A stretch of DNA of 64,000 nt from Candidatus Kerfeldbacteria bacterium (GCA_043799405.1 JAZDNT010000002.1:235320-299319), one strand, 5' to 3'; counted from the stretch's first letter, positions 6,660 to 36,206 are shown. A program made the numbers and translations. The notes: a model not told the origin generated them from the sequence alone.

Positions 6660-6660
6660 C

Positions 6661-14129: not shown

Positions 14130-14639
14130 ATGCAGTATACCGTTCCGCAGTTCATCGACGTCGAGGACAAGATCATCGGACCGATATCGGTCCGGCAGTT
14201 CCTTACCTTCCTCGTCTGCGCAGCGCTCATCTTTGCGAACTACGAGATCGTCTATAAGGTATTCCTTCCGAACTTCTGGGTATTCGCGATCTCATCGATT
14301 TTTATCTTCGCTGTCGCAGGTACCTTCGCTTTTTTAAAGATCAACGGCCGCCCCTTTCACTACTTTCTCTTGAACTTTCTCGTTACGATGCAGAAACCAC
14401 GCCTTCGGGTATGGAACAAACGGCTGCGGCGCGCAGACCTCATTCGGCCGGAAGAGGTGATCGAGATAATTGAGGCGATCCCGATAAAGAAACCGCTCAC
14501 GATCAGTAAGCTCACTGAGCTATCGCTCATCGTTGATACCGGAGGCGCCTACCAAGAAGCAAGCAGCGACCTGTCGGAGAAAAAGGAAGAGCGTTCTACG
14601 AAGGAAGAAAACGTAAGAGATATTTTTTCGGAGCCGTAA
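14130..14639 (+). CDS. PrgI-family (VirB3-like) small T4SS membrane protein
   Basis: The N-terminus MQYTVPQFIDVEDKIIGPISVRQFLTFLVCAALIF followed by a second TM helix matches the PrgI-family pattern as I recall it. It sits directly upstream of the VirB4 ORFs. Confidence 0.75.
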   Translation: MQYTVPQFIDVEDKIIGPISVRQFLTFLVCAALIFANYEIVYKVFLPNFWVFAISSIFIFAVAGTFAFLKINGRPFHYFLLNFLVTMQKPRLRVWNKRLRRADLIRPEEVIEIIEAIPIKKPLTISKLTELSLIVDTGGAYQEASSDLSEKKEERSTKEENVRDIFSEP

Positions 14640-14642
14640 CCT

Positions 14643-15344: not shown

Positions 15345-15349
15345 TACCT

Positions 15350-17257
15350 ATGCCTGATATCAACCTATCAAAACTGAAGACCGGTGAGACGCTTCCTGGA
15401 AAGGAAGAGGTCAAGAAAACGCGTCCGCGACCAATCGAGACCCCGGCGGAGGTCATCGAGGCAGAACGTATCTACCGTCGCGGCGTCGTCTCGGTGCGCG
15501 ATCTCATCGCGCCGGCCGCGTTGCGCGTCGATACGAACTACATCGAACTCGGCTCGAAGTTCGTGCGTACGGTGTTCGTCGTCACCTACCCGCGGTACAT
15601 CGCAGTCGGGTGGTTCGCGCCAATAATCAACTTCAATTCCCCGCTCGATATCGGCATGTTCTTCTACCCCGTAGAATCTAAGGTCATCCTGAAACAGCTC
15701 AAGAACAAGGTCGGGGCATTAGAGGCCCAGATCCTCTCTGATGCAGAGAAGGGCGCTCCGCGCGATCCGATACGGGAGACGGCCTTGCGCGATATCGAGA
15801 AGCTCCGCGACGACCTTACACAGGGGACAGAAAAGTTCTTCCAATTCGCGCTCTACGTCACGATTTACGGCAGCTCTAAGGATGAGCTCGACCGGGTAAC
15901 GGAAAAGATCGAGGATATGTTCGGATCGAAGCTCGTCTTCTCGAAGCGCTCACTGTTCCAGGGAGAGCAGGGGTTCACGTCCAGCCTACCGCTCGGCGTC
16001 GACCAGTTAATGATCTACTTCAACATGAACTCGAGCCCGGTAGCGAGCTCGTTCCCGTTCATCTCGAGCGATCTTACGAGCGACAACGGCATCTTGTATG
16101 GGATCAACCGTCATAACAACTCACTCATTCTGTTCGATCGGTTCTCCTTACAGAACGCGAACTTTACGGTATTCGCAACGTCAGGCGCTGGAAAGAGCTA
16201 CGCGGTAAAACTGGAGATACTCCGATCGATGATGTTCGGTACCGACGTTATCGTGATCGACCCGGAAAACGAGTACAAGTACCTGTCCGACGCGGTCGGC
16301 GGTACGTACGTGAACATATCGCTCAATTCCGACTCGAAGATAAATCCGTTCGATCTCCCGAGGAGCATACAGGGCGATGAAAAGGCGGCGGACATCATTC
16401 GATCCGCGGTCATTACGCTCAAATCGTTGATGCGCCTCATGCTCGGACAGATTACCAATGAAGAAGATTCGATCATTGACCGCGCGCTCCTCGAAACCTA
16501 CGCAAAGAAGGATATCACTCCGGAGAGCGACCTATCGAAGGTCGAGCCGCCGTTGATGCGTGATTTTCAGGACGTCCTTTCGGGCATGGTCGGCGCTGAC
16601 CAACTCGTCGAACGGCTCAAGAAGTACACGGAAGGTACGTTCTCGGGACTCTTCAACAGCCCGACCAACGTCGAGGTCAATAACCAGCTGATGATCTTTT
16701 CGGTCCGCGACCTCGAGGATGAGCTCCGCCCGATCGGTATCTCAATGATCGTAAGCTACATCTGGAACGTTGCTCGATCGACACTGAAAAAACGCATCCT
16801 TACGATCGACGAGGCGTGGTGGCTCATGCAGAACGAGGATTCCGCGAAGTTCATCTACTCGCTCGTAAAGCGGGCTCGGAAGTACTACCTCGGCGTTACG
16901 ACGATAACGCAGGACGTGAACGATTTCCTCCGCTCCCCGTACGGTCAGGCGATCGTGAACAACTCGGCCCTCCAGCTACTAATGAAGCAGTCTCCGGCCG
17001 GTGTTGACATTGTCGCAAAGACCTTCCTGCTGACGCAGAGCGAGCGGTACCTCCTGCTCGAAGCAGGCGTCGGCGAGGGCATCTTCTTCGCCGGTGCGAA
17101 ACATGCCGCAATAAAGGTTGTTGCGAGCTACACCGAGGACCAGATCATCACATCCGATCCGCGGCAGCTCCTTGAGATCGAAGAGGCGAAGAAGGAGTTC
17201 GAGCAGTCGCTCGCACGCGGCGAGGTTCCCGAGTCGATGGGGGGAGCCGTGAAATGA
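15350..17257 (+). CDS. virB4: VirB4-like T4SS ATPase (middle domain plus ATPase domain, 635 aa)
   Basis: DLIAPAALRVDTNYIELGSKFVRTVFVVTYPRYIAVGWFAPII matches the VirB4 middle-domain pattern. Walker A is FATSGAGKSY (about 16169-16201). Walker B-like is ILTIDEAWWLM. Later motif: YYLGVTTITQDVNDF. Confidence 0.85.
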   Translation: MPDINLSKLKTGETLPGKEEVKKTRPRPIETPAEVIEAERIYRRGVVSVRDLIAPAALRVDTNYIELGSKFVRTVFVVTYPRYIAVGWFAPIINFNSPLDIGMFFYPVESKVILKQLKNKVGALEAQILSDAEKGAPRDPIRETALRDIEKLRDDLTQGTEKFFQFALYVTIYGSSKDELDRVTEKIEDMFGSKLVFSKRSLFQGEQGFTSSLPLGVDQLMIYFNMNSSPVASSFPFISSDLTSDNGILYGINRHNNSLILFDRFSLQNANFTVFATSGAGKSYAVKLEILRSMMFGTDVIVIDPENEYKYLSDAVGGTYVNISLNSDSKINPFDLPRSIQGDEKAADIIRSAVITLKSLMRLMLGQITNEEDSIIDRALLETYAKKDITPESDLSKVEPPLMRDFQDVLSGMVGADQLVERLKKYTEGTFSGLFNSPTNVEVNNQLMIFSVRDLEDELRPIGISMIVSYIWNVARSTLKKRILTIDEAWWLMQNEDSAKFIYSLVKRARKYYLGVTTITQDVNDFLRSPYGQAIVNNSALQLLMKQSPAGVDIVAKTFLLTQSERYLLLEAGVGEGIFFAGAKHAAIKVVASYTEDQIITSDPRQLLEIEEAKKEFEQSLARGEVPESMGGAVK

Positions 17258-17811
17258 AGCGTTACTTCCTTATTGCGGCGCCTATCATCGTCGCCGGGAT
17301 AGTGACGTACGTGGCAATGAGGTTTATCAACGGGAGCAATGAGAATATATCGAACGTTTCGGTCGTCGTTATCAATGCGAATACTACGAACGCGACGGAC
17401 GCATCGAGAAATGTGAACGCAAAGCCGTCAAGCAGGGATCAGGTCCTCTCGCTCGCCAGGCTCTTCTCCGAACGTTACGGAACGACGCTCACCGATGCGC
17501 CGAACGCCAACATCGATAGCGTTCTTCCGTTCGCAAGCGCTTCATTGAAAGAAACGCTGAATCGATTGAGAAGCCGGCCATTGATCAACGCTGGCAAAAG
17601 CGTTAGTACAACGAGCATCGCGCTCGCCTTCAAGATCGTTTCTCTAGACGATAAGGACGGGACCGCAGAGACCGTTGTATCGCTTCAGCGGAAAGAAGAT
17701 GCAGGATCAGGAGCGCCAATAGTATTTATGCAAGATATGCGTCTCAGTTTCGTTTTCGAGGATGAAGAATGGAAGGTGAGCGCGGCGCTCTGGAGCGCAA
17801 GAACGCAGTAA
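17254..17811 (+). CDS. Bitopic membrane protein (185 aa); candidate VirB8-like component
   Basis: ATGA overlap with virB4. One N-terminal TM helix (YFLIAAPIIVAGIVTYVAM), an Asn-rich linker and a C-terminal domain of about 120 aa. The VirB8 assignment rests only on topology, size and position. Confidence 0.6.
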   Translation: MKRYFLIAAPIIVAGIVTYVAMRFINGSNENISNVSVVVINANTTNATDASRNVNAKPSSRDQVLSLARLFSERYGTTLTDAPNANIDSVLPFASASLKETLNRLRSRPLINAGKSVSTTSIALAFKIVSLDDKDGTAETVVSLQRKEDAGSGAPIVFMQDMRLSFVFEDEEWKVSAALWSARTQ

Positions 17812-17814
17812 CGT

Positions 17815-18603
17815 ATGGCAGCGCAGCAAGAGAGCCAGAGCGAATCGCAGTACCGGCGTTCATTACAGCGCGGGAAACGGCAGGAACAGCAACCCGATAC
17901 AGAACCTGGCACAGAAGGACTCGAAGAGATCGGAGGAGGGGCTCAACCGGGCGGCGATACAACCGGAGGCTATACGAACGTTCTCGAAGACGGGGGAGCA
18001 AGGAGAAGATCGCCTCAAAAGGAAACACAGCAGCAAGGCGGTATAGGCATGTCGCCTGAAACGTACAAGTCCGGCAGCGAAGAGCAGTATGAACGCGCTG
18101 CGCAGGAAGACAGTCAGAGACAGCAGCAGAAAAGTTCAGCCGATGTTGAACAAGAAAAAACAGCAGAGGAAGACCGCGAACAACAGGAGCAGATGGCGAC
18201 ACAGGACCGGCGCCGGCAGCAGCCCGGACCAGAAGAAGCAAAGCGTACCGCTGAACTCGAAAAGGCCGCAGCAGCAGGTGGCGATGTCACGAAGAAAGCG
18301 AGCCTTCGCGAGAACGTCCAGCAGTCAATGCGGAATGCGGCAGCGCAACGGCTTAAACAGGTCGCACAGCAGCGCGTACAGTCGTTCCTTAAAACCATTA
18401 TTCTCAATAATCCCTGGGTACGGGGCGCACTGCTCGTATTGGTAGGATTGGTGCTTAGTTTATTCCTTTTTTTCATGATTTCGATTGTAACAGTATCAAT
18501 AATTTGTGAATGGGGCGAAAAAATTCCCTTTTCCGGACCGGTCGTTAACGTCATTTCGCAAATGGCAACGGGCATGCAGTGTCCGAACCTCCCGACGAAG
18601 TAA
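17815..18603 (+). CDS. Tail-anchored membrane protein with a Q/E/R-rich disordered N-terminal region of about 200 aa
   Basis: Low-complexity QQ/EE/RR-rich sequence followed by the hydrophobic segment ALLVLVGLVLSLFLFFMISIVTVSIICEW near the C-terminus. Confidence 0.7.
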   Translation: MAAQQESQSESQYRRSLQRGKRQEQQPDTEPGTEGLEEIGGGAQPGGDTTGGYTNVLEDGGARRRSPQKETQQQGGIGMSPETYKSGSEEQYERAAQEDSQRQQQKSSADVEQEKTAEEDREQQEQMATQDRRRQQPGPEEAKRTAELEKAAAAGGDVTKKASLRENVQQSMRNAAAQRLKQVAQQRVQSFLKTIILNNPWVRGALLVLVGLVLSLFLFFMISIVTVSIICEWGEKIPFSGPVVNVISQMATGMQCPNLPTK

Positions 18604-18620
18604 CAGTATTTATATGTAAA

Positions 18621-20033
18621 ATGAAAATAATTCACCGTATTGCAATCATCAGCGTCGCTGCAGTATGCATATTTATTGTGTCGTTCAGGACCGTTAACGC
18701 ACAGAAAACGGAAGAAGCGACGTGCGATCCGGCGAAATCGCTCTGCTTTACCCCGAACGTCGAAATTCCAGGACTCTTTACGGGGACGAAGACCGTCGAT
18801 GAAACGCTCTTCGGTACGTACGTGAGCAGCTTCTACATTTTCTTCGCGGGAGTCGCCGGCATCCTTGCGGTCGTCATGATCATGTGGGGCGGGTTCCACT
18901 ACATCACCTCGCTTGGAAACCCGCAGCGCATGAAGGAAGGGAAGGACATCATCAACAACGCGATCATCGGCCTCATCCTCGTTCTCACATCGTACCTACT
19001 GCTACGTACGATCAATCCGCGCCTCACGACGCTCATAATCCCGCCGGTCGGCTACTACAGCCCGATATACCAGACCGACATCTACTGCAATGCACAGGAT
19101 AAGGTAAACGGAAATACCCTTGCAACGGATGCGGCGAGGAAAGCAGGAAAATTCTGTACGAGCGACGGGCAGACGAAAGAGCAGCTGACCGTCGAGTATA
19201 CAAATGAGAAAGGCGGTAAACAGACCTGCGTTTCGCTCGAGATCACCGAAAAAGTACTAAACGAACAGAAGGTGTTGACTCAGATAGAAAACGGATGGCA
19301 AGAGCAGCTTGTGTGCTTCCCTAAACAGGAAACAGTACAGGATCCAAAGACAAATACAGTATCGAGCAAGTATCTGTATAAACTACGCGATGTGGCAGGT
19401 ACGAGCGGAGTGTGTGAAGATAATACAATGACGCCGGATGCGCAGTGCGCCGTTACGCAGAAAATGCTGTCCCTGGCTGGCGGGAAGTACCTGATTGGTG
19501 CATGCAAGAACTCGAACGTCGCAGCTGCATTTTGGTTTGTTGGGTGGACGGGGAAAGACGTATGCCACTACTATCAGTTTCTGAATTGTCCGACAGCGAC
19601 CACAGAGGCGGTTTCCTGTAGTGCTGCTGGCGCAGGCGTCAATTCAGCATGCTGGGACGAAAAGGGACCGAGGTACGTTGCCGATATCGGAGGCGGCAGC
19701 CTCCAGTCATACTGCGTTGAGCCGAATATTAGTCCTGTTATTGAACATGTTGATGCGCGCTGTTGTTCAAAAACCATTAAGGAAGAAATTGTCTGTTCGC
19801 CGTTGTCTGTCCTGACGGACATGGGTTACTATAATGTACAATGCGGTAGCTTCGAAGAGCTCGACGGTTTCTTTGCCTCAATAAACGAGGAAACGATTCA
19901 GGATGAAATAGGAATGTCGAAAGAGCATATTTTTGTAACTAAGGGTGGCACTGGAAAGAAGGACTGTCCGTCAAAAAAATGTTGGACGACCATATGGCTC
20001 ATCAATATGAACAAAAAGCTACCATGGGAATAA
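18621..20033 (+). CDS. Secreted protein with a VirB2/TrbC-like two-helix pilin core and a Cys-rich C-terminal domain of about 330 aa
   Basis: I prefer the ATG at 18621 (MKIIHRIAIISVAAVCIFIVSFRTVNA signal) over the track start at 18579, which overlaps the upstream gene. The core is FYIFFAGVAGILAVVMIMWGGFHYITSLGNPQRMKEGKDIINNAIIGLILVLTSYLLLRTINP. It is a paralog of the core in the 21300 gene. Confidence 0.75.
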   Translation: MKIIHRIAIISVAAVCIFIVSFRTVNAQKTEEATCDPAKSLCFTPNVEIPGLFTGTKTVDETLFGTYVSSFYIFFAGVAGILAVVMIMWGGFHYITSLGNPQRMKEGKDIINNAIIGLILVLTSYLLLRTINPRLTTLIIPPVGYYSPIYQTDIYCNAQDKVNGNTLATDAARKAGKFCTSDGQTKEQLTVEYTNEKGGKQTCVSLEITEKVLNEQKVLTQIENGWQEQLVCFPKQETVQDPKTNTVSSKYLYKLRDVAGTSGVCEDNTMTPDAQCAVTQKMLSLAGGKYLIGACKNSNVAAAFWFVGWTGKDVCHYYQFLNCPTATTEAVSCSAAGAGVNSACWDEKGPRYVADIGGGSLQSYCVEPNISPVIEHVDARCCSKTIKEEIVCSPLSVLTDMGYYNVQCGSFEELDGFFASINEETIQDEIGMSKEHIFVTKGGTGKKDCPSKKCWTTIWLINMNKKLPWE

Positions 20034-20056
20034 CGACACAATAAATCATCAACACT

Positions 20057-21298
20057 ATGACATTCAACTGGAAACGCATCGGGCTCGTCGTCGGTTTCGT
20101 CCTCATCACCATCGGGATCGGCATTACGATATACTTCGTATTCTTCAAAGGGTTGTTCGGAGTTGGATTGAACCGCAATGAGAACATCAATGGCGCGGAA
20201 TTCCCGAACATCAACGCGAACAGGAACGTGAACGCTCCGCTGATCAACGTTAACGTTCAAGTCCCGAACATCAACGTTTCCCTTGAACCGGGCCCTATCG
20301 CGAAGGGCGGAAAGACGACCGTGAGCCCGGTCGCACCGACGATACCGGGCGGCGCGACGCTCGCGCCGAACGGAAAAGACCTCATCTACTACGATCCGGT
20401 AACAGGAAAGTTCTACCAGATCTCGCCGGACGGAAGGACAAAGACGCTCCTCTCGCCCGATACGTACCCAGCCGCGGACAAGATCACCTGGTCGCCGCTT
20501 AAAGACAAGGTGATCCTCGAGTTCCCCGATGGGAGCAAGATCATCTACGATATCCGGCAGAAACGTCAGTACACGCTCGCGCCGGAAATGGAGGACATCG
20601 GATTCTCCCCGACGGGGGACAAGATCACGTTCAAGTTCATCGGGAGCGACGAATCGGATCAGCTCCTCGTCATGTCGAACTTCGACGGTTCGGGCGCTGA
20701 AACGCTCGAGCCGCTCGCCGACAAAGCGAATCAGTTCGATGTCAACTGGTCCCCGTCGGGCAACATCGTCGCGCTGTTCCAGGAATCGATCAATGCGACC
20801 CAGCAGCGCGTCATCCCGATCGGCACGAAGAACGAGAACTTCAAATCGTTCGATGTCCCGGGGCGGGGGTTCGAGAGCACCTGGTCACCTGACGGACAGC
20901 AGATCCTTTTCAGCGTATTCCGCAAGGATACAGGGTATAACCCCGAGCTGTACATTGCGGACGGTACGTCCGATTCGATGGGGAATAACACGACAGACCT
21001 CGGTCTTGCGACGTGGCCTGATAAGTGCGTGTTCGGCGCTGGCTCAACGCTCTACTGCGCTGTCCCGCAGTACCTTGACCAGGGTTCCGGCCTCTACACT
21101 GACCTCGCAAAGGACGTTCCAGACGATTTCTACCGCATCGATCTCTCAACCGGGCAGAAGCAGCTGATCGCGCGACCGGTCGATAGCGAGGGAACGTCTG
21201 ACTACAACGCGGTGCAGCTGCGGCTCGCGAACGACGGATCAGCGCTCTACTTCTATGATCAGCGGTCGAGAACGTATCAGAAGATTCTTTTGAGGTAA
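20057..21298 (+). CDS. Membrane-anchored TolB-like beta-propeller protein (413 aa)
   Basis: N-terminal TM helix, an Asn-rich linker (NINANRNVNAPLINVNVQVPNINV), then repeated WSP-type blades (ITWSPLKDK, IGFSPTGDK, VNWSPSGN, STWSPDGQQ). Confidence 0.8.
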   Translation: MTFNWKRIGLVVGFVLITIGIGITIYFVFFKGLFGVGLNRNENINGAEFPNINANRNVNAPLINVNVQVPNINVSLEPGPIAKGGKTTVSPVAPTIPGGATLAPNGKDLIYYDPVTGKFYQISPDGRTKTLLSPDTYPAADKITWSPLKDKVILEFPDGSKIIYDIRQKRQYTLAPEMEDIGFSPTGDKITFKFIGSDESDQLLVMSNFDGSGAETLEPLADKANQFDVNWSPSGNIVALFQESINATQQRVIPIGTKNENFKSFDVPGRGFESTWSPDGQQILFSVFRKDTGYNPELYIADGTSDSMGNNTTDLGLATWPDKCVFGAGSTLYCAVPQYLDQGSGLYTDLAKDVPDDFYRIDLSTGQKQLIARPVDSEGTSDYNAVQLRLANDGSALYFYDQRSRTYQKILLR

Positions 21299-21299
21299 T

Positions 21300-22610
21300 A
21301 TGCGGAGAGCGTTTGCTATCGTTCTGCTCATCATACTCGGATCGCTCTGTATCGAGAGCGGAGCTGTTCGTGCGGATACGCCAAGCAAGGAGTTGGAAGC
21401 TGAGCTAAAGATGAGAACGTGTAAAGCGAACGGATACAAGGATGGCGCGTTCGTATATGACGGAAAAAGTGGATGTGCCGTTGATATGAAGGGCGAGGGC
21501 GGTATTCTCGAGGACTGTAATAGCTCCGTGGCGATCTGCTGCTATGACGATAAGAAAAGCCCGCCAGTGCCTGTATGCCACTACTTATCAGGCGCGAATG
21601 TATCTTCGCCGTTAACGGACGTTTCGACGACGGACGATGGTACGACGAAAACCAAACCGCCGATAACGTTCTCCCCGAACGTTCCTATCCCGGGTTACTT
21701 TGAAGAAACGGGTTATAAAACTGACGATTCGCTGTTGGTAAGGTATTTAAGCGCGTTCTATATATACTTCATCGGCGTTATCGGCATCCTCGCGGTCGTC
21801 ATGATCATGTACGGCGGGTACCACTATATTACTGCGCTCGGGAACCCGCAGCGCATGAACAAGGGTAAGGAGATCATCTCGAGCGCTATCATCGGCCTCA
21901 TTCTTGCACTCACCTCGTTCCTGCTGCTACGGACGATCAACCCCGCGCTCGTGAATTTCTACGGCGTTGTTCCGACGTACATCGCCCGGATCCTCCAGGA
22001 AACTGAAAAGCTCGCAAAACCGGAAAGACACGCTAACCTCAGTATCGATGTATCAAAGACAGGAATGGCAGAGATGCTGCAGCGTGCGAAGACCGCAGGG
22101 TATGACGCGACGATCCTACAGAAAGCCGGAGGGGACAAAGAGCTTGCCTACCATGCCCTTGCGACGATGTTCATTGAATCGAGCGTGAATCCTAATGCGA
22201 TCTCGTCCGCAAACGCGTACGGACTTATGCAGGTATTGCCGTCAACTGCGCAGAGATACGGCGTTGTATTGTCTTCGAGCCTTTTGGACCCGAACATGAA
22301 CATTCACGCCGGCGTCTCGTACCTCTATGACCTCAAAAAGGGCGCGGCGTGCCCGCCGTACAACAGGAGCACGACCGCGCGGAAGATATTCTGCCAGAAA
22401 CCCGACCCGTGTACGGTTACTCAATGGCAGTACGTCCACGCTGCCTACAACGGCGGTCCAGGGGCTAATTATTGCAGCAAGGAAAAATCCTGTCTCGGAT
22501 ATACATGGTGGCAGTGTTCGGTGAATAAAGGATATGCCGAAACGCGTCAGTACGTTTATCGCGCAAAAGCGGTTTACGAATGGCTTGTTGAGCAAAACGT
22601 CTACCCGTAA
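21300..22610 (+). CDS. Fusion protein: signal peptide, Cys-rich segment, VirB2-like hairpin core, then a C-terminal SLT lytic transglycosylase (VirB1-like)
   Basis: Core: FYIYFIGVIGILAVVMIMYGGYHYITALGNPQRMNKGKEIISSAIIGLILALTSFLLLRTINP. SLT motifs: MFIESSVNPNAIS, AYGLMQVLPSTA, AAYNGGPGA (about 22110-22470). Confidence 0.85.
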   Translation: MRRAFAIVLLIILGSLCIESGAVRADTPSKELEAELKMRTCKANGYKDGAFVYDGKSGCAVDMKGEGGILEDCNSSVAICCYDDKKSPPVPVCHYLSGANVSSPLTDVSTTDDGTTKTKPPITFSPNVPIPGYFEETGYKTDDSLLVRYLSAFYIYFIGVIGILAVVMIMYGGYHYITALGNPQRMNKGKEIISSAIIGLILALTSFLLLRTINPALVNFYGVVPTYIARILQETEKLAKPERHANLSIDVSKTGMAEMLQRAKTAGYDATILQKAGGDKELAYHALATMFIESSVNPNAISSANAYGLMQVLPSTAQRYGVVLSSSLLDPNMNIHAGVSYLYDLKKGAACPPYNRSTTARKIFCQKPDPCTVTQWQYVHAAYNGGPGANYCSKEKSCLGYTWWQCSVNKGYAETRQYVYRAKAVYEWLVEQNVYP

Positions 22611-30588: not shown

Positions 30589-31419
30589 TTATTCGGCCGT
30601 GCGTGCGGTCGATTCGCCGTACTCGATACTGAACTTCACACGGCCGTACGGCATTTTCTTCGGCGGATTGTCGAGGTCGAGCTCGACCCGATTCGGGATG
30701 AGGGACGTTTCCTGGCGTTCACGAGGCGCTCCCTCCTCGTTGAACAATTTCGGCATTTCCAGTTTAGTCGCTGGCGTTCCAGCTAAGTCAATGACTGCGC
30801 CGAGGTGGACGCTGTCGCTTTCTCCCTCGGCCGTCTTGGTGATCTCCCTGTACACGGTCGTCTTCGCATCCATGACGAATTTTTCAACACGCTTTTTGTC
30901 ATTATCAACGGCCACCGTTACGTCACCTGATGCAACCATAGCGTCAAGCGTTTCCTTAGAAGGTCGAAGCACTGCCTCGGGGAACGTCGCAAGTTCGCCA
31001 TCGCCCCAACTTGAGCCGCTTGTACCTCTTTCGGTACGACCATGGCGCACATTTGAAAGGTGGATATTTTTTCCGATGACATCAAGATTATCGAACTCGA
31101 CGCTGCCGACGTTCCATGTCTCATAGCGCTCTTTGTCCGATTCAGTCTGTACATTCGGATCTTGTTCGGTAATAGGAGTTCCCTGTTCATCGACTAAGAC
31201 CTTTCCGGTCTCGGGATCGGTTTTTATCCGTTCACCGGTAAATGAACCCTTGATGAACGTTGCACCGTTCTGACCTTTTTCGTATTTGGTCTGTTGATAT
31301 TCCCGGCCGTCGTACGCATACCTAGTATCGAACGTTTCGTTTCCTTCAATGTCGGTTTCATCTGAACCTTCAATGTATTGATCGAGTTTTGGTGCTCGTC
31401 CGTGTTCAGGGTTTTCCAT
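30589..31419 (-). CDS. Hypothetical acidic soluble protein (276 aa)
   Basis: Long ORF of plausible composition with no TM segment or signal. It has an AT-rich upstream region. No motif recognised. Confidence 0.7.
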   Translation of the reverse strand: MENPEHGRAPKLDQYIEGSDETDIEGNETFDTRYAYDGREYQQTKYEKGQNGATFIKGSFTGERIKTDPETGKVLVDEQGTPITEQDPNVQTESDKERYETWNVGSVEFDNLDVIGKNIHLSNVRHGRTERGTSGSSWGDGELATFPEAVLRPSKETLDAMVASGDVTVAVDNDKKRVEKFVMDAKTTVYREITKTAEGESDSVHLGAVIDLAGTPATKLEMPKLFNEEGAPRERQETSLIPNRVELDLDNPPKKMPYGRVKFSIEYGESTARTAE

Positions 31420-31539
31420 AATCGATTAGAGTTTAATTAAGTAACAGAATACTATACACGATATTTTCCTTGTAGTCAAGTGTAACACGAATTAACAGTT
31501 CTTTGTAAGAACTCACTTGATTTGTTATTCGGATTACTA

Positions 31540-31840
31540 TGGCGCGCCCGGCAGCCCCGCACTATTCGCTACGCTCAAGTGCGGGATCTTCGAGATTTGT
31601 CCAGCGGCCCTTTTTGTTACAATCGACTATTACAGTTGCTGACCGCCGCCCTGCCTGGTGCGCTCGGGAGGATTTGAACCTCCGGCCCTCAGCTCCGCAA
31701 GCTGAGGCTCTATCCGGACTGAGCTACGCGCGCCCAGGCAGGGCGGCGTCTGAATAATTTAAGTAACGTTGATATATTAGCTGATGCGGTACCTGCCTCG
31801 CACCCGCAGTGGTGCGGGGTCCGGACTGAGCTACGGGCGC
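31540..31840 (-). other. tRNA-Arg-like outer shell: a 5' fragment (acceptor, D-stem, D-loop) and a 3' acceptor+CCA fragment bracketing the intact tRNA-Arg
   Basis: On the minus strand, GCGCCCG-TA-GCTC-AGTCCGGA (31840-31820) is near-identical to the inner gene's 5' end and is then broken by CCCCGCAC. Far downstream, GTGCGGGG-CTGC-CGGGCGC-G-CCA (31562-31540) has an acceptor strand that is a perfect complement of GCGCCCG. Confidence 0.4.
31656..31733 (-). tRNA. tRNA-Arg (anticodon GCG)
   Basis: Manual cloverleaf: GCGCGCG TA GCTC AGTCCGGATA GAGC C TCAGC TTGCGGA GCTGA GGGCC GGAGG TTCAAAT CCTCC CGAGCGC A CCA. There is one G-A mismatch in the acceptor stem. CCA is encoded. Confidence 0.85.
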
Positions 31841-31914
31841 ACGCCGGAATATCTTAGCATACCATTGAGTTATTACAACCAGATGAATACCCGTCGCTTG
31901 TACAGCCAATAAAC

Positions 31915-31938
31915 CACCGCATGTGTCGATGCACGGTG
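31915..31938 (-). terminator. Hairpin downstream of the 166-aa membrane protein gene
   Basis: On the minus strand, CACCGTGCAT-CGACA-CATGCGGTG is followed by GTTTATT. The stem is imperfect. Confidence 0.35.
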
Positions 31939-31956
31939 TTTCCTGAACGATTTCTA

Positions 31957-32457
31957 TTAGATCCTGAACAGCCTTCCTATCGCGTCCGAGGTCGCCTCGT
32001 CCTCCTTTGAAAGGTCTTCCTGAATGAACCTGCGAAGCTGTTTTCTGATCTCAACGGGGTTCGCATCCTCGAGCGCGATGCCGATCAGCGGACGGAGCGC
32101 GCTCTTGAAGGTGAAGTAGATCGTTTTTGCCGGCGGTTTGTAGATGATCCAGAAGTTCTTGATGTCGTCAAACGGGAAGAAGTCCTTTCCGATGCCGATG
32201 CCGTCCTCGAATATTGTCGCGGTCAGCACCCGCGGTTTCTGGCGCGAGCGGTAGTAGAAGATCGACCAGCCGATGATGACAATGAAGGCGAACAGGGGAT
32301 TTCTCGAGAAGATCGCGTACGTTAACAGCGCAAGCCCGATGACCGTCATGATGGCGTACCACATCCGCGTATAGGCATAGTGGGGGATTTCCGGAAACTT
32401 CCACGATAGCAGCGAGCTGCCGTGGTCGATCACTTGGTTTTGTTCTGGTTGCGCCAT
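31957..32457 (-). CDS. Hypothetical membrane protein (166 aa, two TM helices plus a soluble C-terminal domain)
   Basis: TM helices MWYAIMTVIGLALLTYAIF and LFAFIVIIGWSIFYY, followed by a domain of about 100 aa. Confidence 0.75.
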   Translation of the reverse strand: MAQPEQNQVIDHGSSLLSWKFPEIPHYAYTRMWYAIMTVIGLALLTYAIFSRNPLFAFIVIIGWSIFYYRSRQKPRVLTATIFEDGIGIGKDFFPFDDIKNFWIIYKPPAKTIYFTFKSALRPLIGIALEDANPVEIRKQLRRFIQEDLSKEDEATSDAIGRLFRI

Positions 32458-32532
32458 AGGTGCACCTCCTTATGTAGAGTGTACCACGTTTGAACAATTC
32501 AATATATCCACCGAGACCATCGCCGGTTAAAT

Positions 32533-32846
32533 GGTTTTCCCCGCTCCTTGATTTAAGGCATCAAATGATTGCGGGATCGCGCCAATAGCGGAGGGTGAAG
32601 GATTCCCGCCGACCTCCTCGGCTGTGCTCGGAGTTTGGCGGGCAGGCGAACCTACGATCCCGCCTTTGGCGGGCAAGACTCATGAGGAGAGCGGAGGCGG
32701 TAGGATTCGAACCCCGTATAAGCGCTACGCGCTTTACGGGGCAAGCCCCCGATACCTTTGCAGGTATTCCGGTTTTTCAGGCGAAGCCGGATCCGGCTCT
32801 GTCGGGCAAGACTCATGAGGAGAGCGGAGGCGGTAGGATTCGAACC
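32533..32846 (-). repeat. Scrambled tRNA-Ser-derived fragments and direct repeats downstream of the nested tRNA-Ser(UGA) pair
   Basis: A 44-nt direct repeat, GGTTCGAATCCTACCGCCTCCGCTCTCCTCATGAGTCTTGCCCG, occurs at 32846-32803 and 32713-32670. A repeat of about 73 nt (T-loop 3' half, acceptor, trailer hairpin) occurs at 32942-32870 and 32605-32533. There is also a chimeric interrupted T-arm, GTAGGTTC|42 nt|GAATCCTTC. Confidence 0.5.
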
Positions 32847-33061
32847 TACGAGACCTTTTCAGGTCTAGCGGTTTTTCCCGCTCTTTGATCTAGTGTATCA
32901 AATGTTTGCGGGATCGCGCCAATGGCGGAGGGTGAAGGATTCGAACCTTCGAGACCATTGCTGGTCTAACGGTTTTCAAGACCGTCGCTTTCGACCGCTC
33001 AGCCAACCCTCCGCCATTGGCGGGACAAGACTGCCCGATTCAACCACTCTCGCACGCCTCC
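32825..33061 (-). tRNA. Interrupted tRNA-Ser(UGA)-like gene (outer) whose 150-nt anticodon-loop insert contains the complete inner tRNA-Ser(UGA)
   Basis: Exon 1 (33061-33026): GGAGGCG TG CGA GAGTGGTTGAA TCG G GCAGT CTTG. Exon 2 (32875-32825): AAA ACCGC TAGACCTGAAAAGGTCTC GTAGG TTCGAAT CCTAC CGCCTCC G. Joined, these give an 87-nt type-II cloverleaf with one A-C mismatch in the anticodon stem. Whether it is expressed or spliced is unknown. Confidence 0.5.
32923..33012 (-). tRNA. tRNA-Ser (anticodon UGA)
   Basis: GGAGGGT TG GCT GAGCGGTCGAA AGC G ACGGT CTTGAAA ACCGT TAGACCAGCAATGGTCTC GAAGG TTCGAAT CCTTC ACCCTCC G CCA. All stems are Watson-Crick and it has a long variable arm. Confidence 0.9.
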
Positions 33062-33106
33062 GCTCTCCCTACGAATTGTCACCTTAGACCACTCAGCCAA
33101 CCTTCC
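33062..33106 (-). other. Orphan 5' fragment of a third type-II tRNA (acceptor plus D-arm 5' part)
   Basis: GGAAGGT TG GCT GAGTGGTCTAA is followed by non-tRNA sequence that ends in GGAGAGC, which pairs with the trailer of the outer Ser(UGA). I could not assemble a colinear 3' partner. Confidence 0.4.
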
Positions 33107-33114
33107 ATAAATCA

Positions 33115-33462
33115 CTACCGACGAATTTGGTTATTTTCTGGTTTCGTGTGGTGGTATTTACCGAGGATGTCTTTTGCAACCATATTGAACGCTTCCTCAA
33201 TATCGATGTTGAGTTGGTTCGAAAGCCTGCAGAGCGCGAAGAAGAGGTCGCCGATGCCGTCCTTGAAGATCATAGTATGTTTCTTCACGAACGCAACTCG
33301 TTCCTTCTCCGATTTGTAGCGGAGGTGCTGCGACATTTCGATGAGTTCCTCGTGGAGGTGGTCGAATTTGTCGACATTCGGGACGTCTTTCCAACGGTTG
33401 CGTCGTGAAAATACCTTCACAAGCGCCTGCGCATCACGCATGGAACTGATTCGTTGTTGCAT
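33115..33462 (-). CDS. MazG-like nucleotide pyrophosphohydrolase (115 aa)
   Basis: Helical protein with HLHEELIEMSQ...IGDLFFALCRLSNQLNIDIEEAF, which fits the EExxE...D pattern of the MazG family. Confidence 0.8.
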   Translation of the reverse strand: MQQRISSMRDAQALVKVFSRRNRWKDVPNVDKFDHLHEELIEMSQHLRYKSEKERVAFVKKHTMIFKDGIGDLFFALCRLSNQLNIDIEEAFNMVAKDILGKYHHTKPENNQIRR

Positions 33463-33478
33463 AGGTATTGTTAATTAT

Positions 33479-33573
33479 CTGGCGGGACACTCGAGTTAGG
33501 TACCCAACCCGCGCAAGCATTATACGGGTTTTCTGACGATTTTTCTAGAGGGTGATTCGAGGTACATGGGTCA
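33479..33573 (-). repeat. Intergenic repeat element, copy 1 (promoter plus leader upstream of the MazG-like gene)
   Basis: Shares these blocks with copy 2: tggcgg[g/a]acac..gagttaggtacc, ttttctgacgattttt, gagg.ca.g.gggtc. On the minus strand it carries TATAAT (33524-33519). Confidence 0.5.
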
Positions 33574-33583
33574 CTCAAAAACT

Positions 33584-34270
33584 CTATGTGCGGTAAGATC
33601 GTGACTCGATTCTCTCGGCGCGTAATTTCAGAACTCGCTCCGAGATTAATCGGGCTATATCTTCTCGAGAATACTTCGGATGTTTCGAGTATGCTGGGTG
33701 CAAAGTACTTAAAACCCCCCAAATCGCTTGGTGATCACCGGGTTGAGCATCGACCCATTCATTAAATATTGACAGACGAGCTAATTCGCCGATGTCGCGT
33801 TCTTTTCGCTCATCAGTTGTCATTGGCAGTAGCGCACTTTCGAAAATGAGATGAAAATCTGGACCGAATACTTTATTACATATCTGACGTGTCCGGGGAA
33901 TATGGTAATCCGCTGCAACGATAACAAGACTGTGCCACTTTTTCGGGATCGCAAAGAGTGTTTTTACAAAGTATGCGTTTCCAATCGTTTCTTTTGACTG
34001 CTCCTCTTTGAGTATACAACTCGATGGACAGCCAAGCTGTTCAGCAAATTCTGCCATAGCCGCAGCCTCGGTTCGTAACGGCACCATTACACTCGATGAT
34101 GCCCAAGCTCCTGACATTACTATCACTGGAGCAAGCTTGTCATTCCACAATTGAACCGCCTTTTTGACTCGAACACGTGAGTTGTTTTCAAGTGATCCGT
34201 CAGGGTTTATTCCCCCGCCGAATACTACAATGGCGTCAAACATGTGAACATTTACTTTTTTTACTAGCAA
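33584..34270 (-). CDS. DUF218/YdcF-family protein
   Basis: FDAIVVFGGGINPDGS...VIVMSGAWASS...TEAAAMAEF...KETIGNAYF...VIVAADYHIPRT fits the YdcF/ElyC pattern. Confidence 0.8.
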   Translation of the reverse strand: MLVKKVNVHMFDAIVVFGGGINPDGSLENNSRVRVKKAVQLWNDKLAPVIVMSGAWASSSVMVPLRTEAAAMAEFAEQLGCPSSCILKEEQSKETIGNAYFVKTLFAIPKKWHSLVIVAADYHIPRTRQICNKVFGPDFHLIFESALLPMTTDERKERDIGELARLSIFNEWVDAQPGDHQAIWGVLSTLHPAYSKHPKYSREDIARLISERVLKLRAERIESRSYRT

Positions 34271-34298
34271 TTGGGTCTACTCCAATACTTTGCTCTCT

Positions 34299-34392
34299 TG
34301 GCGGAACACATGAGTTAGGTACCACCGCCAGAGGGATATTGTAAGGCTTTTCTGACGATTTTTATAGGCGCGAATTTGAGGCAGGTGGGTCG
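34299..34392 (-). repeat. Intergenic repeat element, copy 2 (upstream of the DUF218 gene)
   Basis: See copy 1. On the minus strand it carries TACAAT (34343-34338). Its downstream end, TCCGCCAAGAGAGCAAAGTATTGGAGTAGACCC, resembles the 3' end and trailer of the outer tRNA-Ser(GCU), TCCGCCAAGAGAACCAAGTATCGTACGACCC. Confidence 0.5.
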
Positions 34393-34409
34393 GGTGGGCC
34401 GGCAGCTTT

Positions 34410-35147
34410 TTATTTTTTAAACGCCTTTACCTTCCCACGTGGTGGGTAGCGAAGATCGTGTGTATGCATCACATAGTTCGAATATGCCAGTCGTTTTTTT
34501 TGCTCAAAACGTTGAAATCCACTTAACCTAATCCGTTCTTTCGGATCCTTATAGGCAGAGATTTGAGCTTTGATGTCAGTAATATAGAACCATCGAAAAC
34601 CTCCCAGCCAGGCTCGTCTACAGTAATCGGCGTCTTCACTACGACGGCTAACCGCTGACAAATAACCCAATTTGCCGAACACTTGTTTTGAAAAAGAAAA
34701 GAAACAGCCAGCTAAATTCCAGTATGGCCATGGATCCAAGTAGTGGCGTCCATTTTTGGCTAATGCGAAACCACTCATGTAGGTATAAGCACCGAGTATG
34801 GCTTTATCTTGCCAGTCTCTATGCGCCTTCATTAATGTGTCAACCCAGTTACTACTTTGGATGGTAACGTCGTTATCGAGGATGGTATAATAATCCATCC
34901 TAGGGTAACGTCGTAGGGCTACATTGACGCTTTTCGGTTTACCGATGTTTTTTTCGTTGCGCTGGAGTAGGATGGCAGGATTTTTTGCAATTAATTTCTG
35001 TATCGCCGTTCTTGTTTTCAGGTCGCTATGATCATCGGCAATAAGTAATGTGCTTTTTTTCAGATCTGTCGTCCGCACCAGACTCCCAATACAACGCCGA
35101 GTAAGCGTCGGTTTATTATATACGCAGACAATAATAAGGTGTTTCAT
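34410..35147 (-). CDS. Family 2 glycosyltransferase
   Basis: IIVCVYNKPTLTRRCIGSL...LIADDHSD...ILDNDV fits the GT-A fold (DxD) pattern. Confidence 0.8.
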   Translation of the reverse strand: MKHLIIVCVYNKPTLTRRCIGSLVRTTDLKKSTLLIADDHSDLKTRTAIQKLIAKNPAILLQRNEKNIGKPKSVNVALRRYPRMDYYTILDNDVTIQSSNWVDTLMKAHRDWQDKAILGAYTYMSGFALAKNGRHYLDPWPYWNLAGCFFSFSKQVFGKLGYLSAVSRRSEDADYCRRAWLGGFRWFYITDIKAQISAYKDPKERIRLSGFQRFEQKKRLAYSNYVMHTHDLRYPPRGKVKAFKK

Positions 35148-35193
35148 AAAACCATTTTAGTATGCACCCGGGTCGTACGATACTTGGTTCTCT

Positions 35194-35523
35194 TGGCGGA
35201 GAGGGAGAGATTCTCCCGCTCCTTTTCTTAATATGCGAAACGATTCGCGGGATCCCGCCCATCGAGGGCGGGAGAACTCTCGATCCCGCAATATGGCGGG
35301 ATAACGGTTTAGTCGCCGCCCCAGAGCGGAGAGGGAGAGATTCGAACTCTCGAAGCGAGTATAACCCCGCTTAACGGTTTAGCAAACCGCTGCCTTCAGC
35401 CACTCGGCCACCTCTCCGCTCTGGGGCGGGATCCTCGTCCCGTTTTATGGCGGGACGGGACAAACCGCTGCGCCTGCCCCGCACCCATTGTGGTGCGGGG
35501 TTCAACCGCTCGGCCACCTCTCC
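35194..35523 (-). tRNA. Triply interrupted tRNA-Ser(GCU)-like gene (outer) containing the intact tRNA-Ser(GCU) in its anticodon-loop insert
   Basis: Colinear parts: GGAGAGG TG GCC GAGCGGTTGAA | 24-nt hairpin | CAGGCGCA GCGGT TTG | 148-nt insert | CTAA ACCGT TA TCCCGCCATATTGCGGGA TC GAGAG TTC | 60-nt insert | GAAT CTCTC CCTCTCC G CCA. About 2-4 extra nt near the D/anticodon junction remain unexplained. Confidence 0.5.
35327..35417 (-). tRNA. tRNA-Ser (anticodon GCU)
   Basis: GGAGAGG TG GCC GAGTGGCTGAA GGC A GCGGT TTGCTAA ACCGT TAAGCGGGGTTATACTCGCTTC GAGAG TTCGAAT CTCTC CCTCTCC G. CCA is not encoded. Confidence 0.9.
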
Positions 35524-35552
35524 GCTCTGCGCCCTTTGATCGCGTTAGAGCG

Positions 35553-36206
35553 TTATCCCTTTGCAATGGTAAGTGCGGTGATGTGTTCCATTCCGGCTTC
35601 GCGGAGGACGTGCGCAACCTCGGAAATCGTTGCACCGGTCGTGAACACGTCGTCGATGATTATACCACGTTTCGGTACAAAATCAACGGCGTGTGCTAAT
35701 GCGAATGCATGCGCGACGTTCCTGGCGCGCTCGTTCTCATGCAGCGTGACCTGAGGAACAGTGTTCTTAATCCTGATGACCAGCGGCATGACTGGTATCT
35801 TGAGAACGGACGCTGCTTCTTCAGAGATGAGCATTGCCTGGTTAAACCCGCGCGAGCGTTGCCGTTTTGAATGAAGCGGTACGGGTATGATACAATCAGC
35901 CGTTAAATATTCTTCTGCAAGTTTTCCAAGCGCGCGACCGAGGATGGTGCTTATAACCCTGCCGCCGCCATACTTGAGTTGCTTGATGACTTGCCCGAGG
36001 ATCCTTGAATCGTACGAACCAAGACAGAGCAGACGGTCGACGTGTTTTACCGGTTCAGCGCGGTCGATATGAGGACCGCACGATAAAAGGCACGATTCGC
36101 ATAGCCATACGCCGTCGGTGCCGCACCCGCGGCAAGAAGGCGGAAAGAGGATATTGAGAACTAGTTCGCGGAGATGGTGAATAATCGGTGGCATAGTACG
36201 CGCCAC
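35553..36206 (-). CDS. comF: ComF-family phosphoribosyltransferase-like competence protein
   Basis: N-terminal Cys cluster (CRGCG...CESC). The C-terminal PRTase motif is IIIDDVFTTGATISE. Confidence 0.85.
   Translation of the reverse strand: MARTMPPIIHHLRELVLNILFPPSCRGCGTDGVWLCESCLLSCGPHIDRAEPVKHVDRLLCLGSYDSRILGQVIKQLKYGGGRVISTILGRALGKLAEEYLTADCIIPVPLHSKRQRSRGFNQAMLISEEAASVLKIPVMPLVIRIKNTVPQVTLHENERARNVAHAFALAHAVDFVPKRGIIIDDVFTTGATISEVAHVLREAGMEHITALTIAKG

Follow-up and report, generated by a model that had tools for sequence, protein, structure and literature searches.

Putative tRNA replacement cassettes and GC-rich palindromic modules at three tRNA loci of Candidatus Kerfeldbacteria

Three enclosed tRNA genes

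The window, which is the whole stretch of 64 kb of DNA analysed here, comes from Candidatus Kerfeldbacteria in the candidate phyla radiation and has only three intact tRNA genes according to ARAGORN and Rfam: tRNA-Arg(GCG) at 31656-31733, tRNA-Ser(UGA) at 32923-33012 and tRNA-Ser(GCU) at 35326-35417. They are found in the region 31540-35523, and all tRNA-locus features described below are on the minus strand. Alignment of each intact gene to its surroundings shows that it is enclosed by an older, co-oriented copy of the same isoacceptor, and this applies to three of three tRNA genes in the window. The enclosing copies, here called shells, are broken up by GC-rich hairpins and by the insert that carries the inner tRNA. 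This arrangement is best explained by insertion with replacement at the DNA level, where tRNA replacement cassettes and GC-rich palindromic modules, and not introns, interrupt the genes; the probability of this reading is put at about 0.7.

The genes around the tRNA loci are bacterial, with RecG, P-type ATPase, ComF, ClpC, LemA and M48 peptidase among the open reading frames (ORFs) of the window. The window was compared by sequence with relatives, which are metagenome-assembled loci labelled L001-L128, and the gene order LemA, M48, ClpC, ComF, tRNA-Ser(GCU), tRNA-Ser(UGA), a protein of 166 amino acids (aa) and tRNA-Arg is kept in them. A first-pass annotation, made from the sequence of the window alone, had pointed to recurrent breakpoints in tRNA loops and to self-complementary insert ends, and had offered two readings: multi-intron tRNAs, or a small mobile cassette that inserts into a tRNA gene while delivering a replacement copy.

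A hairpin family confined to tRNA loci

Hairpins of the type CCCGC..GCGGG with a loop of at most 45 nucleotides (nt) occur ten times in the window, and all ten fall within 31556-35499 with none in the remaining 60 kb. The background frequency in 1.07 Mb of unrelated bacterial loci is 11.4 such pairs per 100 kb, or about 0.45 expected in 4 kb; these loci come from a contig scan with the ComF peptide DDVFTTGA, which is generic, and 79 of the 80 loci belong to unrelated bacteria. Generic GC-rich hairpins are not special, with 90 in the window against about 57 in shuffled sequences, and the signal is specific to the CCCGC..GCGGG family and to tRNA loci. In the relatives, every copy of the hairpin with a stem of at least 6 bp adjoins a tRNA. 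The motif check proposed in the first-pass annotation, when run on the window and its relatives, thus found the family confined to tRNA loci.

Each unit opens with (T)CCCGC and closes with GCGGG(A), exactly at the insertion boundary, and pairs from end to end, which bears out the earlier observation that the insert ends (T)CCCGC(C) and (G)GCGGGA can pair. The loop is either short (3-7 nt), AT-rich (about 26 nt) or a whole tRNA gene, and in the last case the stem runs straight on into the acceptor stem. The AT-rich type, named hp2, consists of TCCCGC, a loop of about 26 nt ending in AAGGA, and GCGGGA, and its 3' part reads AAGGAGCGGGA. It usually accompanies a tRNA cassette and is found in both orientations relative to the tRNA. 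Where units stand in tandem the palindrome GCGGGATCCCGC arises. Modules made up of a hairpin only belong to the same family and are located at loop apexes and at one T-stem site of the relic copies. The T-stem module, named T2, reads T(C/A)GAAGA followed by (T/C)CCCGCAC..GTGCGGG(A/G); it is placed directly 3' of (A/G)AATC and is followed by CT(G/A)C and the 3' strand of the acceptor stem. The window, L124 and L127 have T2 in an Arg shell, L006 and L009 in a Ser-type shell.

Each cassette consists of one whole tRNA gene flanked by an inverted repeat of 11-16 bp, the clamp, which extends the acceptor stem and whose outer part usually reads (T)CCCGC(C/A)... on the left and ...GCGGG(A) on the right. 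Among 21 tRNAs of the window and its relatives, the pairing of leader and trailer beyond the acceptor stem comprises 11-16 pairs in the nine nested inner tRNAs and 2-5 pairs in the 12 that are not nested; the 2-5 pairs of native tRNAs are chance pairs. The two arms of the Arg clamp are GCCGCCCTGCCTGG and CCAGGCAGGGCGGC in the window, CCCCGCGCTCCTGG and CCAGGAGCGCGGGG in L126, and CCATTCGCTCCTGG and CCAGGAGCGAATGG in L127. Because these clamps differ at many positions and yet are fully paired, the pairing itself is conserved. The nested cassettes are only about 110-150 nt long, are alike in anatomy in nine cases, and occupy, in the same orientation, the anticodon loop of the resident gene for their isoacceptor. 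There is no target duplication, as the shell pieces abut the inserts without repeated bases. The composite transcripts are predicted to fold as a cloverleaf within a cloverleaf.

Empty, nested and rearranged states in relatives

The empty state is found in L010, where ComF is followed by tRNA-Ser(GCU), 5 nt, tRNA-Ser(UGA) and a plain tRNA-Arg without hairpins or fragments. A comparison of presence and absence of the inserts had been called for in the first-pass annotation, and among the relatives it gave this empty site and nested states in others.

The nested states differ between relatives in the order and condition of the layers. The Ser(GCU) cassette of L001 is preceded by an inverted hp2 placed after the TTG of the outer copy, and this outer copy has lost its D-arm and has the T-loop TTAGAAT (C56A). 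In L009 the outer Ser(GCU) copy has a T-arm deletion that begins exactly after TTC. At the Ser(UGA) locus, the type-D cassette of L001 lies within an outer copy that corresponds in essence to type C, the innermost one of the window, while L009 has three layers with a type-C left junction identical to that of the window over 34 nt. Type C is thus innermost in the window, in the middle in L009 and outermost in L001, and type D is innermost in L001 and present only as a loose fragment in the window. A complete IS200/IS605-type insertion sequence (IS) element (7070-7625), with a Y1_Tnp gene product of 148 aa and end hairpins of its own, is located in the D-loop of the type-C relic Ser(UGA) layer of L009, inserted 3' of TTTA on the transposase strand. 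A lost anticodon is also among the signs of dead shells in the window and relatives.

L127 is a distant relative, with 62% aa identity (65% nt) to the window in ClpC and 41% aa identity in ComF, and it was the single match in a metagenome scan with the T2 pattern. Its Arg locus is nested like that of the window with the same breakpoints in the D-loop, anticodon loop and T-stem. Its Ser(UGA) locus has a 5' half identical at 36 of 36 nt to layer B of the window, ending in CTTG and followed by two hairpins and AAAAC, with no 3' partner. Relic stems and flanks are identical between the window and L127 over stretches from 21/21 to 36/36, as compared with about 65% nt identity in housekeeping genes, and the loops at the same sites are unrelated. 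Judged from the sequences, these identities would fit either a recent horizontal spread or loops that act as hot spots for insertion and deletion.

Other rearrangements were seen near the same genes. In L126 (1000-1450) a clamped tRNA-Arg cassette is opposite in strand to the conserved gene for the 166-aa protein, and the T-loop fragment GGGGCAAATC stands in the other orientation, which suggests that the cassette, or the locus as a whole, has been inverted. In L125 (1-235) and L128 (1249-1460) the 3'-terminal 19-21 nt of an intact tRNA-Ser(UGA), from the T-loop onwards, recur as a direct repeat about 100 nt further on, as is classical for integration of the integrase type. Immediately downstream of the tRNA-Ser(UGA) locus, L001 (7791-12636) encodes a ResIII helicase, a DNA methylase and a large serine recombinase, and L009 (7839-8585) encodes a tyrosine recombinase. 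The tRNA-Ser(UGA) locus is an integration hot spot for larger islands too.

Anatomy of the loci in the window

Hairpins and modules were delimited in the sequence itself and shell pieces by alignment, supplemented with in-silico splicing for the variable-arm hairpin of Ser(GCU) and the 3' halves of the Ser(UGA) layers. The outer Ser(GCU) copy is cut into six pieces (35523-35501, 35476-35461, 35312-35302, the hairpin 35301-35284, 35283-35274 and 35213-35194), separated by a D-loop hairpin (35500-35477), an anticodon-loop insert with the intact tRNA (35460-35313) and a T-loop double hairpin (35273-35214). Five blocks of it, 65 nt in total, are identical to the inner copy. A promoter-like site, TTGATT and TATAAT with a spacer of 16 nt, is located upstream. 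The first piece (35501-35523) comprises tRNA positions 1-22 up to the D-loop break after GAA; its first 15 nt (35523-35509) match the inner copy exactly, unlike its D-loop part. It is followed by the D-loop module CCCCGCACC-acaat-GGGTGCGGGG (35477-35500), of the same type as in the D-loop of the Arg shell, and by the piece (CA)GGCGCAGCGGTTTG (35461-35476), which runs to the anticodon-loop break after TTG. Left of the cassette there is an accessory hairpin, TCCCGT..ACGGGA(cgagga), at 35432-35460; in this slot L001 has the inverted hp2, here TCCCGC..GAGCGGGA with its AT-rich loop, and L009 has another hairpin. The cassette itself (35313-35431) has the clamp TCCCGCCCCAGAGC and GCTCTGGGGCGGCGA around the intact tRNA-Ser(GCU), as supported by a score of 58 bits, 13 extension pairs and the fold.

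Beyond the cassette the outer copy resumes with the anticodon 3' piece CTAAACCGTTA (35302-35312), identical to the inner copy at 11 of 11 nt. The hairpin TCCCGCCatattGCGGGA (35284-35301) stands in for the variable arm, 18 nt for 18 nt, and is not an extra insert; in the shell spliced in silico the variable arm would read UCCCGCCAUAUUGCGGGA. The 5' piece of the T-stem, TCGAGAGTTC (35274-35283), runs to the T-loop break after TTC, where a tandem double hairpin (35214-35273) follows, made up of the cargo-less TCCCGCCctcgatgGGCGGGA and an hp2 of the form TCCCGC(27 nt)GCGGGA with a loop that ends in ..AAAAGGA. The outer 3' end, GAATCTCTCCCTCTCCGCCA (35194-35213), is together with its 3' flank identical at 23 of 23 nt to the native L127 tRNA end.

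At the Ser(UGA) locus three or more layers can be told apart: A encloses B, and B encloses the intact type-C tRNA. A trail of loose 3' fragments (32776-32490) is also present, and 3' fragments outnumber 5' fragments. Layer A is the decayed 5' part of an older tRNA-Ser(UGA) (33068-33106), identical to the intact tRNA of L124 at 23 of 23 nt and then degenerate. Layer B (33026-33067) begins with the clamp GGAGAGC and contains the 5' half, shared with the partnerless half in L127, up to CTTG. The type-C cassette (32914-33025), whose left junction is the one shared with L009, has the clamp TCCCGCCAATGGC and GCCATTGGCGCGA and is followed by the hp2 module TCCCGCaaacaTTTGATacactagATCAAAgaGCGGGA (32876-32913) and the 3' half of layer B, AAAACC...CCGCCTCCGC, with the clamp TCTCC (32819-32875). 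The loose fragments at 32658-32776 consist of a type-D anticodon and variable-arm piece (32776-32749) identical at 28 of 28 nt to the inner tRNA of L001, a hairpin CCCCGTA..TACGGGG (32741-32712), a repeat of the B-type segment from T-loop to 3' end (32711-32691) and a hairpin CCCGCCaaaGGCGGG (32673-32659). At 32577-32657 there is a T-arm junction TCGTAGGTTC, a hairpin GCCTGCCCGCC..GGCGG, and GAATCCTTCACCCTCCGC with the right clamp TATTGGCGCGA of an older type-C cassette. A second hp2 copy (32576-32539) and the decayed 3' half of layer A complete the locus (32490-32576).

The Arg shell is broken in the D-loop, in the anticodon loop (31779/31778) and in the T-stem at 61/62 (31594/31593). Its positions 1-21 (31820-31840) are identical to the native Arg gene of L006 at 21 of 21 nt, and are followed by the D-loop module CCCCGCACCactGCGGGTGCGAGG with CAGG (31792-31819) and the piece TACCGCATCAGCT (31779-31791), which is broken in the anticodon loop as in L127. 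The cassette (31642-31750) has the clamp GACGCCGCCCTGCCTGG and CCAGGCAGGGCGGCGGT with 16 pairs around the intact tRNA-Arg(GCG). The variable-loop and T-loop piece AGGGCCGCTGGACAAATC (31594-31611) is decayed when compared with native Arg genes, and the T2 module (31555-31593), TCGAAGA with TCCCGCACT..AGTGCGGGG after AAATC, separates it from the outer 3' end CTGCCGGGCGCGCCA (31540-31554).

The junctions given in the first-pass annotation proved to be exact: GGA/CCCCGCACC at 31820/31819 in Arg; GAA/CCCCGCACC at 35501/35500, TTG/TCCCGTCCCGCC at 35461/35460, TTC/TCCCGCC at 35274/35273 and the re-entry GGGA/GAATC at 35214/35213 in Ser-GCU; and TTG/TCCCGCC at 33026/33025, TTC/GCCTGCCCGCC at 32648/32647 and the re-entry GGCGG/GAATC at 32606/32605 in Ser-UGA. 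Two of its statements need qualification. The anticodon-loop breaks share the preceding TTG but not the tRNA position, which is 34/35 in Ser-GCU and 35/36 in Ser-UGA, and the T-loop junction at 32648 is correctly placed but chimeric, because the strands of the T-arm at 32657-32588 (GTAGG on the 5' side, CCTTC on the 3' side) come from different tRNA types. The T-stem break at 61/62, the break in the Arg anticodon loop, and the three or more layers with loose 3' fragments at Ser-UGA are additional to that annotation.

Neighbouring genes

Genes for a GT2 glycosyltransferase and a DUF218 protein (33584-35147) are located between the two Ser tRNA loci in this genome only. A look-up of the GT2 protein by exact sequence gave no match. 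L001 has a MazG-like gene alone in this place, and in L010 and L128 the tRNAs are 5 nt apart. On sequence evidence, the space between the two loci is probably a variable spot for gene insertion. Two promoter-plus-leader-like copies on the minus strand (33480-33544 and 34299-34364) read AAAATCGTCAGAAAA(C/G)CC(G/T)TA(T/C)AAT followed by a hairpin of the form (GCGGG or GGCGG)-TGGTACCTAACTC(G/A)(A/T)GTGT-(CCCGC or CCGCC). They are upstream of a MazG-like ORF (33115-33462) and the DUF218 ORF (33584-34270), had no match in Rfam, and may represent a common regulatory leader or belong to a gene cassette. Further away, at 14130-22610, there is a type IV secretion-like cluster with a PrgI-like protein, a TraG/VirB4-type ATPase, two proteins with a pilin domain of type IV secretion systems and an SLT transglycosylase. 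It is flanked by very large proteins with fn3 and purple-acid-phosphatase N domains (648-10299) and is possibly a conjugative or DNA-uptake apparatus.

Relics of insertions or exons

When the inserts were deleted in silico and ARAGORN was run on the joined shells, five of nine constructs, representing three shells (the window's outer Ser-GCU, its layer B and the outer Ser-UGA of L001), refolded as tRNA-Ser. The other four failed to refold, namely layer A and the outer Arg of the window and, in L001 as well as in L009, the outer Ser-GCU shell. The shells are taken to be relics of DNA insertions and not exons because they are truncated, mutated, chimeric or hit by an IS element, and because the orders of layers vary. 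As far as sequence comparison can tell, they probably form a time series of DNA insertions that was followed by decay. The mobile-cassette reading of the first-pass annotation is supported by the empty site in L010, by clamps of 11-16 pairs as opposed to 2-5, by the varying layer order and by the dead shells.

According to its other reading, these would be multi-intron tRNA genes whose hairpins and inner-tRNA insert are removed from the precursor by an endonuclease of the bulge-helix-bulge (BHB) type, or another one, together with a ligase, leaving both tRNAs functional. The shells that refold, the 65 nt shared between outer and inner Ser-GCU, and the paired insert ends, which would draw the exon ends together, are in line with this. 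Group I introns have a conserved P3-P9 core of at least about 200 nt, and the inserts, at 16-150 nt, are far too small to be ribozyme introns of this kind. Scans of 31300-35800 with Rfam, at gathering thresholds and at permissive E-values, found no intron or ribozyme but only the three tRNAs. In BHB introns both splice sites lie in 3-nt bulges with a 4-bp helix between them. Pairing of the insert ends is complete down to the terminal bases, for example CCCCGCACC with GGTGCGGGG and TCCCGCC with GGCGGGA, and therefore places the junctions at the feet of helices with no BHB geometry, as judged by eye without a dedicated BHB search. Known tRNA introns of Patescibacteria are group I ribozymes, some of them at position 35/36, where the 5' exon ends in U and the intron in G (PMC13011429), but the 5' exons here would end in ...TTG or ...TTC and the inserts end in ...GGGA, ...GCGA or ...GGGG. 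No splicing endonuclease or ligase was recognisable in the 64 kb window in Pfam scans of 39 ORFs.

The condition of the shells also speaks against introns, with four of nine constructs failing, a missing half in L127 and L009, the IS element in L009 and C56A in L001. Outer and inner tRNA share the anticodon, which would make the outer one redundant, and maturation of the inner tRNA by RNase P and 3' processing would split the outer one. The multi-intron reading is rejected as a general explanation and could at most apply to the outer Ser-GCU and layer B of the window; overall it is very improbable.

A somewhat better alternative, although still unlikely, is that the loci are scars of classical integrase integration at tRNA genes (attL/attR) from which the islands were later deleted, and that the hairpins are unrelated REP-like repeats in neutral DNA of a compact genome. 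The direct repeats in L125 and L128, the recombinases that abut the Ser-UGA locus in L009 and L001, and the excess of 3' over 5' fragments at Ser-UGA in the window agree with this. However, the nested cassettes bring a complete foreign tRNA with its own 5' half, leave 5' relics, have no direct repeats at their borders, and are uniform in anatomy at only about 110-150 nt, and the modules are found at identical nucleotide positions in independent, non-homologous relics and nowhere else in the intergenic DNA of the window. Misjoining of repeated tRNA sequences in metagenome assembly could be suspected because all data are metagenomic and the related contigs L002-L005, L011 and L123 end at these loci. 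Such an artefact is barely credible, as the same architecture is found in independent assemblies and samples (NCBI GCA_040960375.1, JGI Ga0315287, Logan runs), the junctions are shared, and identical stretches between layers are at most 36 nt, below typical assembly k-mers.

Other candidates were considered and rejected. Integron cassettes of the attC type do not apply (no GTT core and no IntI), nor do hairpin telomeres or P-nucleotide footprints (the CCCGC core is conserved) or terminators (no U-run on the tRNA strand). A resemblance of CCCGC to Type IIS FauI-like sites is a coincidence with nothing in support. For retro-insertion via RNA no reverse transcriptase was seen, and no group II introns have been detected in Patescibacteria (PMC13011429).

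Insertion with replacement is left as the best explanation, and there are several points against it. There is no single insertion motif, as the D-loop breaks follow GGA, GAA or GA, the T-stem break is AATC/CTRC and the Arg anticodon-loop break follows AGCT. Among the genes of the 64 kb window none can be recognised as encoding a transposase, recombinase, nuclease or reverse transcriptase, and the link to a GIY-YIG nuclease described below consists of two loci (L127 and L128), neither with an anticodon-loop cassette. Stems and flanks are conserved while loops are unrelated, which makes selection for some function possible. With the inserts taken out in silico, two window shells, the outer Ser-GCU and layer B, still refold; for the complete Ser-GCU locus the predicted fold is one cloverleaf inside another, and removal at the RNA level is possible for the refolding shells. 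Finally, all sequences are metagenome assemblies.

Mobility and candidate enzymes

The CCCCGCACC module is shared by the D-loops of the Arg and Ser-GCU shells of the window. A tandem unit of a short hairpin and hp2 is found in the T-loop of the Ser-GCU shell, beside Ser-UGA cassettes, and in a phage intergenic spacer (L096, IMGVR_UViG_3300035445_000133). In L096 the tandem, TCCCGCcttGCGGGA followed by TCCCGC..AAGGAGCGGGA, is located at 5715-5770 with no tRNA nearby, and the contig is phage-like with P22-type portal, coat and adaptor proteins. Nearly all matches in searches of viral contigs with module patterns were chance matches in GC-rich coding DNA, and L096 alone was genuine. The same modules are present at the same positions in tRNAs that are not homologous (Arg and Ser), and also in genomes far apart and in a phage contig, which points to mobility without homology.

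The 10 TCCCGC-type junctions in anticodon loops and T-loops all follow CTTG, TTTG, GTTG or GTTC, which is also simply what tRNA loops contain. Elements of the IS91 family insert at 5'-CTTG or 5'-GTTC without target duplication and have palindromic ends (PMC13181058). An HUH-type transposase is a candidate because of the NTT(G/C) junctions, the lack of target duplication and the palindromic ends. Within the window, tblastn gave no match to Y1 transposase, tyrosine recombinase or GIY-YIG, there was no Y2 HUH transposase, and none of the 39 ORFs scanned with Pfam was assigned to a mobility, ligase or splicing enzyme. The Y1_Tnp gene of L009, the only one found, belongs to an element with end hairpins unlike the modules, and the window has none. 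Because no enzyme gene is recognisable in the window, the mobilising enzyme is conjecture.

The other candidate is a small GIY-YIG nuclease as driver. L127 (1553-1895) and, independently, L128 (831-1171) have a 14-nt duplicate of the 5' end of tRNA-Ser(GCU), a double hairpin (CCACCGCC..GGCGGGG CCCCGC..GGTGGG), an ORF of 85 aa with a GIY-YIG domain (PF01541, E = 4e-13) and the intact tRNA, in that order. The last seven codons and the stop of the ORF are sequence of the intact tRNA, which stays intact because its first 14 nt are duplicated. L009 has the double-hairpin module at the same D-loop position without the GIY-YIG ORF, and the ORF is absent from the window and from relatives other than L127 and L128. 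A protein search gave only one close homologue; tblastn matches in Rhizobium and Ralstonia phages were not beside tRNAs, and a search for such loci in viruses gave none. From its sequence, the unit looks like a nuclease element that invaded a tRNA gene and carries a duplicated 5' segment. For either specific enzyme class, GIY-YIG or HUH-type, the chances are rather below even.

All insertion sites are at or near the apex of a cloverleaf loop, and this shared feature favours an enzyme acting on folded single-stranded tRNA-gene DNA. Insertion would be catalysed in trans by such an enzyme, either a small GIY-YIG nuclease or an HUH-type single-strand transposase, which would cut at the foot of the module stem and in the loop of the cloverleaf. 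The split resident gene then decays, and repeated rounds give rise to nested layers and loose fragments. The inner tRNA may be transcribed from the resident promoter, fold alone by means of its clamp and be released by the normal tRNA-processing enzymes, while the clamp would insulate its folding from the near-identical shell halves. Spread between lineages might be aided by phage carriage and by recombination through conserved tRNA flanks. Because the resident gene, which is probably single-copy and essential, is destroyed and a substitute is supplied, such a cassette would be hard to lose, following a logic of addiction or cleave-and-rescue.

Comparison with known systems

Islands and prophages with tyrosine integrases enter the anticodon loop, T-loop or 3' end of tRNA genes and carry a copy of the displaced segment. 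The cassettes are similar to these integrative elements in their anticodon-loop and T-loop targets, in bringing tRNA sequence and in leaving displaced fragments, and true examples adjoin the loci in L125 and L128. In contrast to integrative elements, the cassettes are about 110-150 nt long without an integrase, bring a whole tRNA, leave relics on both the 5' and the 3' side, and are bounded by a stem that pairs both ends instead of att direct repeats. Some homing endonuclease genes stand free and bring along a replacement for part of the target gene; examples are SegB in the tRNA cluster of phages T4 and T6 and mobile ORFs with hybrid atp6 in fungal mitochondria. The GIY-YIG ORF in a tRNA gene of L127 and L128, the polymorphism in presence and absence, and the mosaic flanks resemble these systems. 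However, the window cassettes have no nuclease gene, the GIY-YIG protein is a bare catalytic domain of 85 aa with no DNA-binding domain, and movement of hairpin modules between non-homologous sites is unexplained by homing.

IS91, IS200/IS605 and REP/REPIN-RAYT elements share with the modules the lack of target duplication, insertion 3' of NTT(G/C) as far as the TCCCGC-type anticodon-loop and T-loop junctions go, palindromic ends, and tiny non-autonomous units, which here would be moved in trans; in L009 one relic D-loop even contains an element of the IS200 type. The differences are that no cognate Y1 or Y2 transposase was found, that the ends pair with each other and not as subterminal hairpins of their own, that the D-loop, T-stem and Arg anticodon-loop sites are off-motif, and that tRNA is carried as cargo. 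GC-rich single, double or tandem hairpins with patchy presence between relatives are also known from organelles, as GC clusters in yeast mitochondria, double-hairpin elements in Allomyces and repetitive hairpins in sponges, and these have no flanking duplications and insert into RNA genes (PMC2800124). They are found in tolerant variable regions and bring no replacement gene, whereas the modules described here are found in core tRNA loops of dead copies on a bacterial chromosome and in a phage, and the likeness is a resemblance of form and not of common descent. Disrupted tRNAs of archaea (non-canonical BHB introns, split and permuted genes) and group I introns of Patescibacteria are also interrupted in the D-, anticodon or T-loop, with 35/36 used by group I, but the present loci differ in having no BHB motif, no ribozyme, decaying shells and a full duplicate tRNA.

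The cassette system fails a defining test of each of integrative elements, homing endonucleases, HUH elements and organellar hairpins, and combines features of all of them. Literature searches turned up no account of nested tRNA replacement cassettes with hairpin clamps from bacteria, and the mobility mechanism has a fair chance of being new. It is suggested, tentatively and with the odds leaning against it, that these loci represent an undescribed class of selfish element, in which a clamped tRNA cassette kills and rescues its cognate gene, is moved together with cargo-less modules by a structure-specific nuclease, possibly of the GIY-YIG type, and spreads among lineages of the candidate phyla radiation and their phages.

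Significance

If this is true, an essential RNA gene has been colonised without an intron, by an invader that brings a spare copy and becomes indispensable. The cleave-and-rescue principle is used in synthetic gene drives and is barely documented in bacteria. The finding would explain the assembly breaks at tRNA loci and the accumulation of tRNA fragments in these genomes of the candidate phyla radiation, and would be a warning for annotation, as such "multi-intron tRNAs" would be relics. It would give the abundant small stand-alone GIY-YIG proteins a testable role and offer site-specific insertion into tRNA genes in a compact natural system of about 150 nt. It would also bear on the old idea that disrupted tRNA genes co-evolve with mobile elements.

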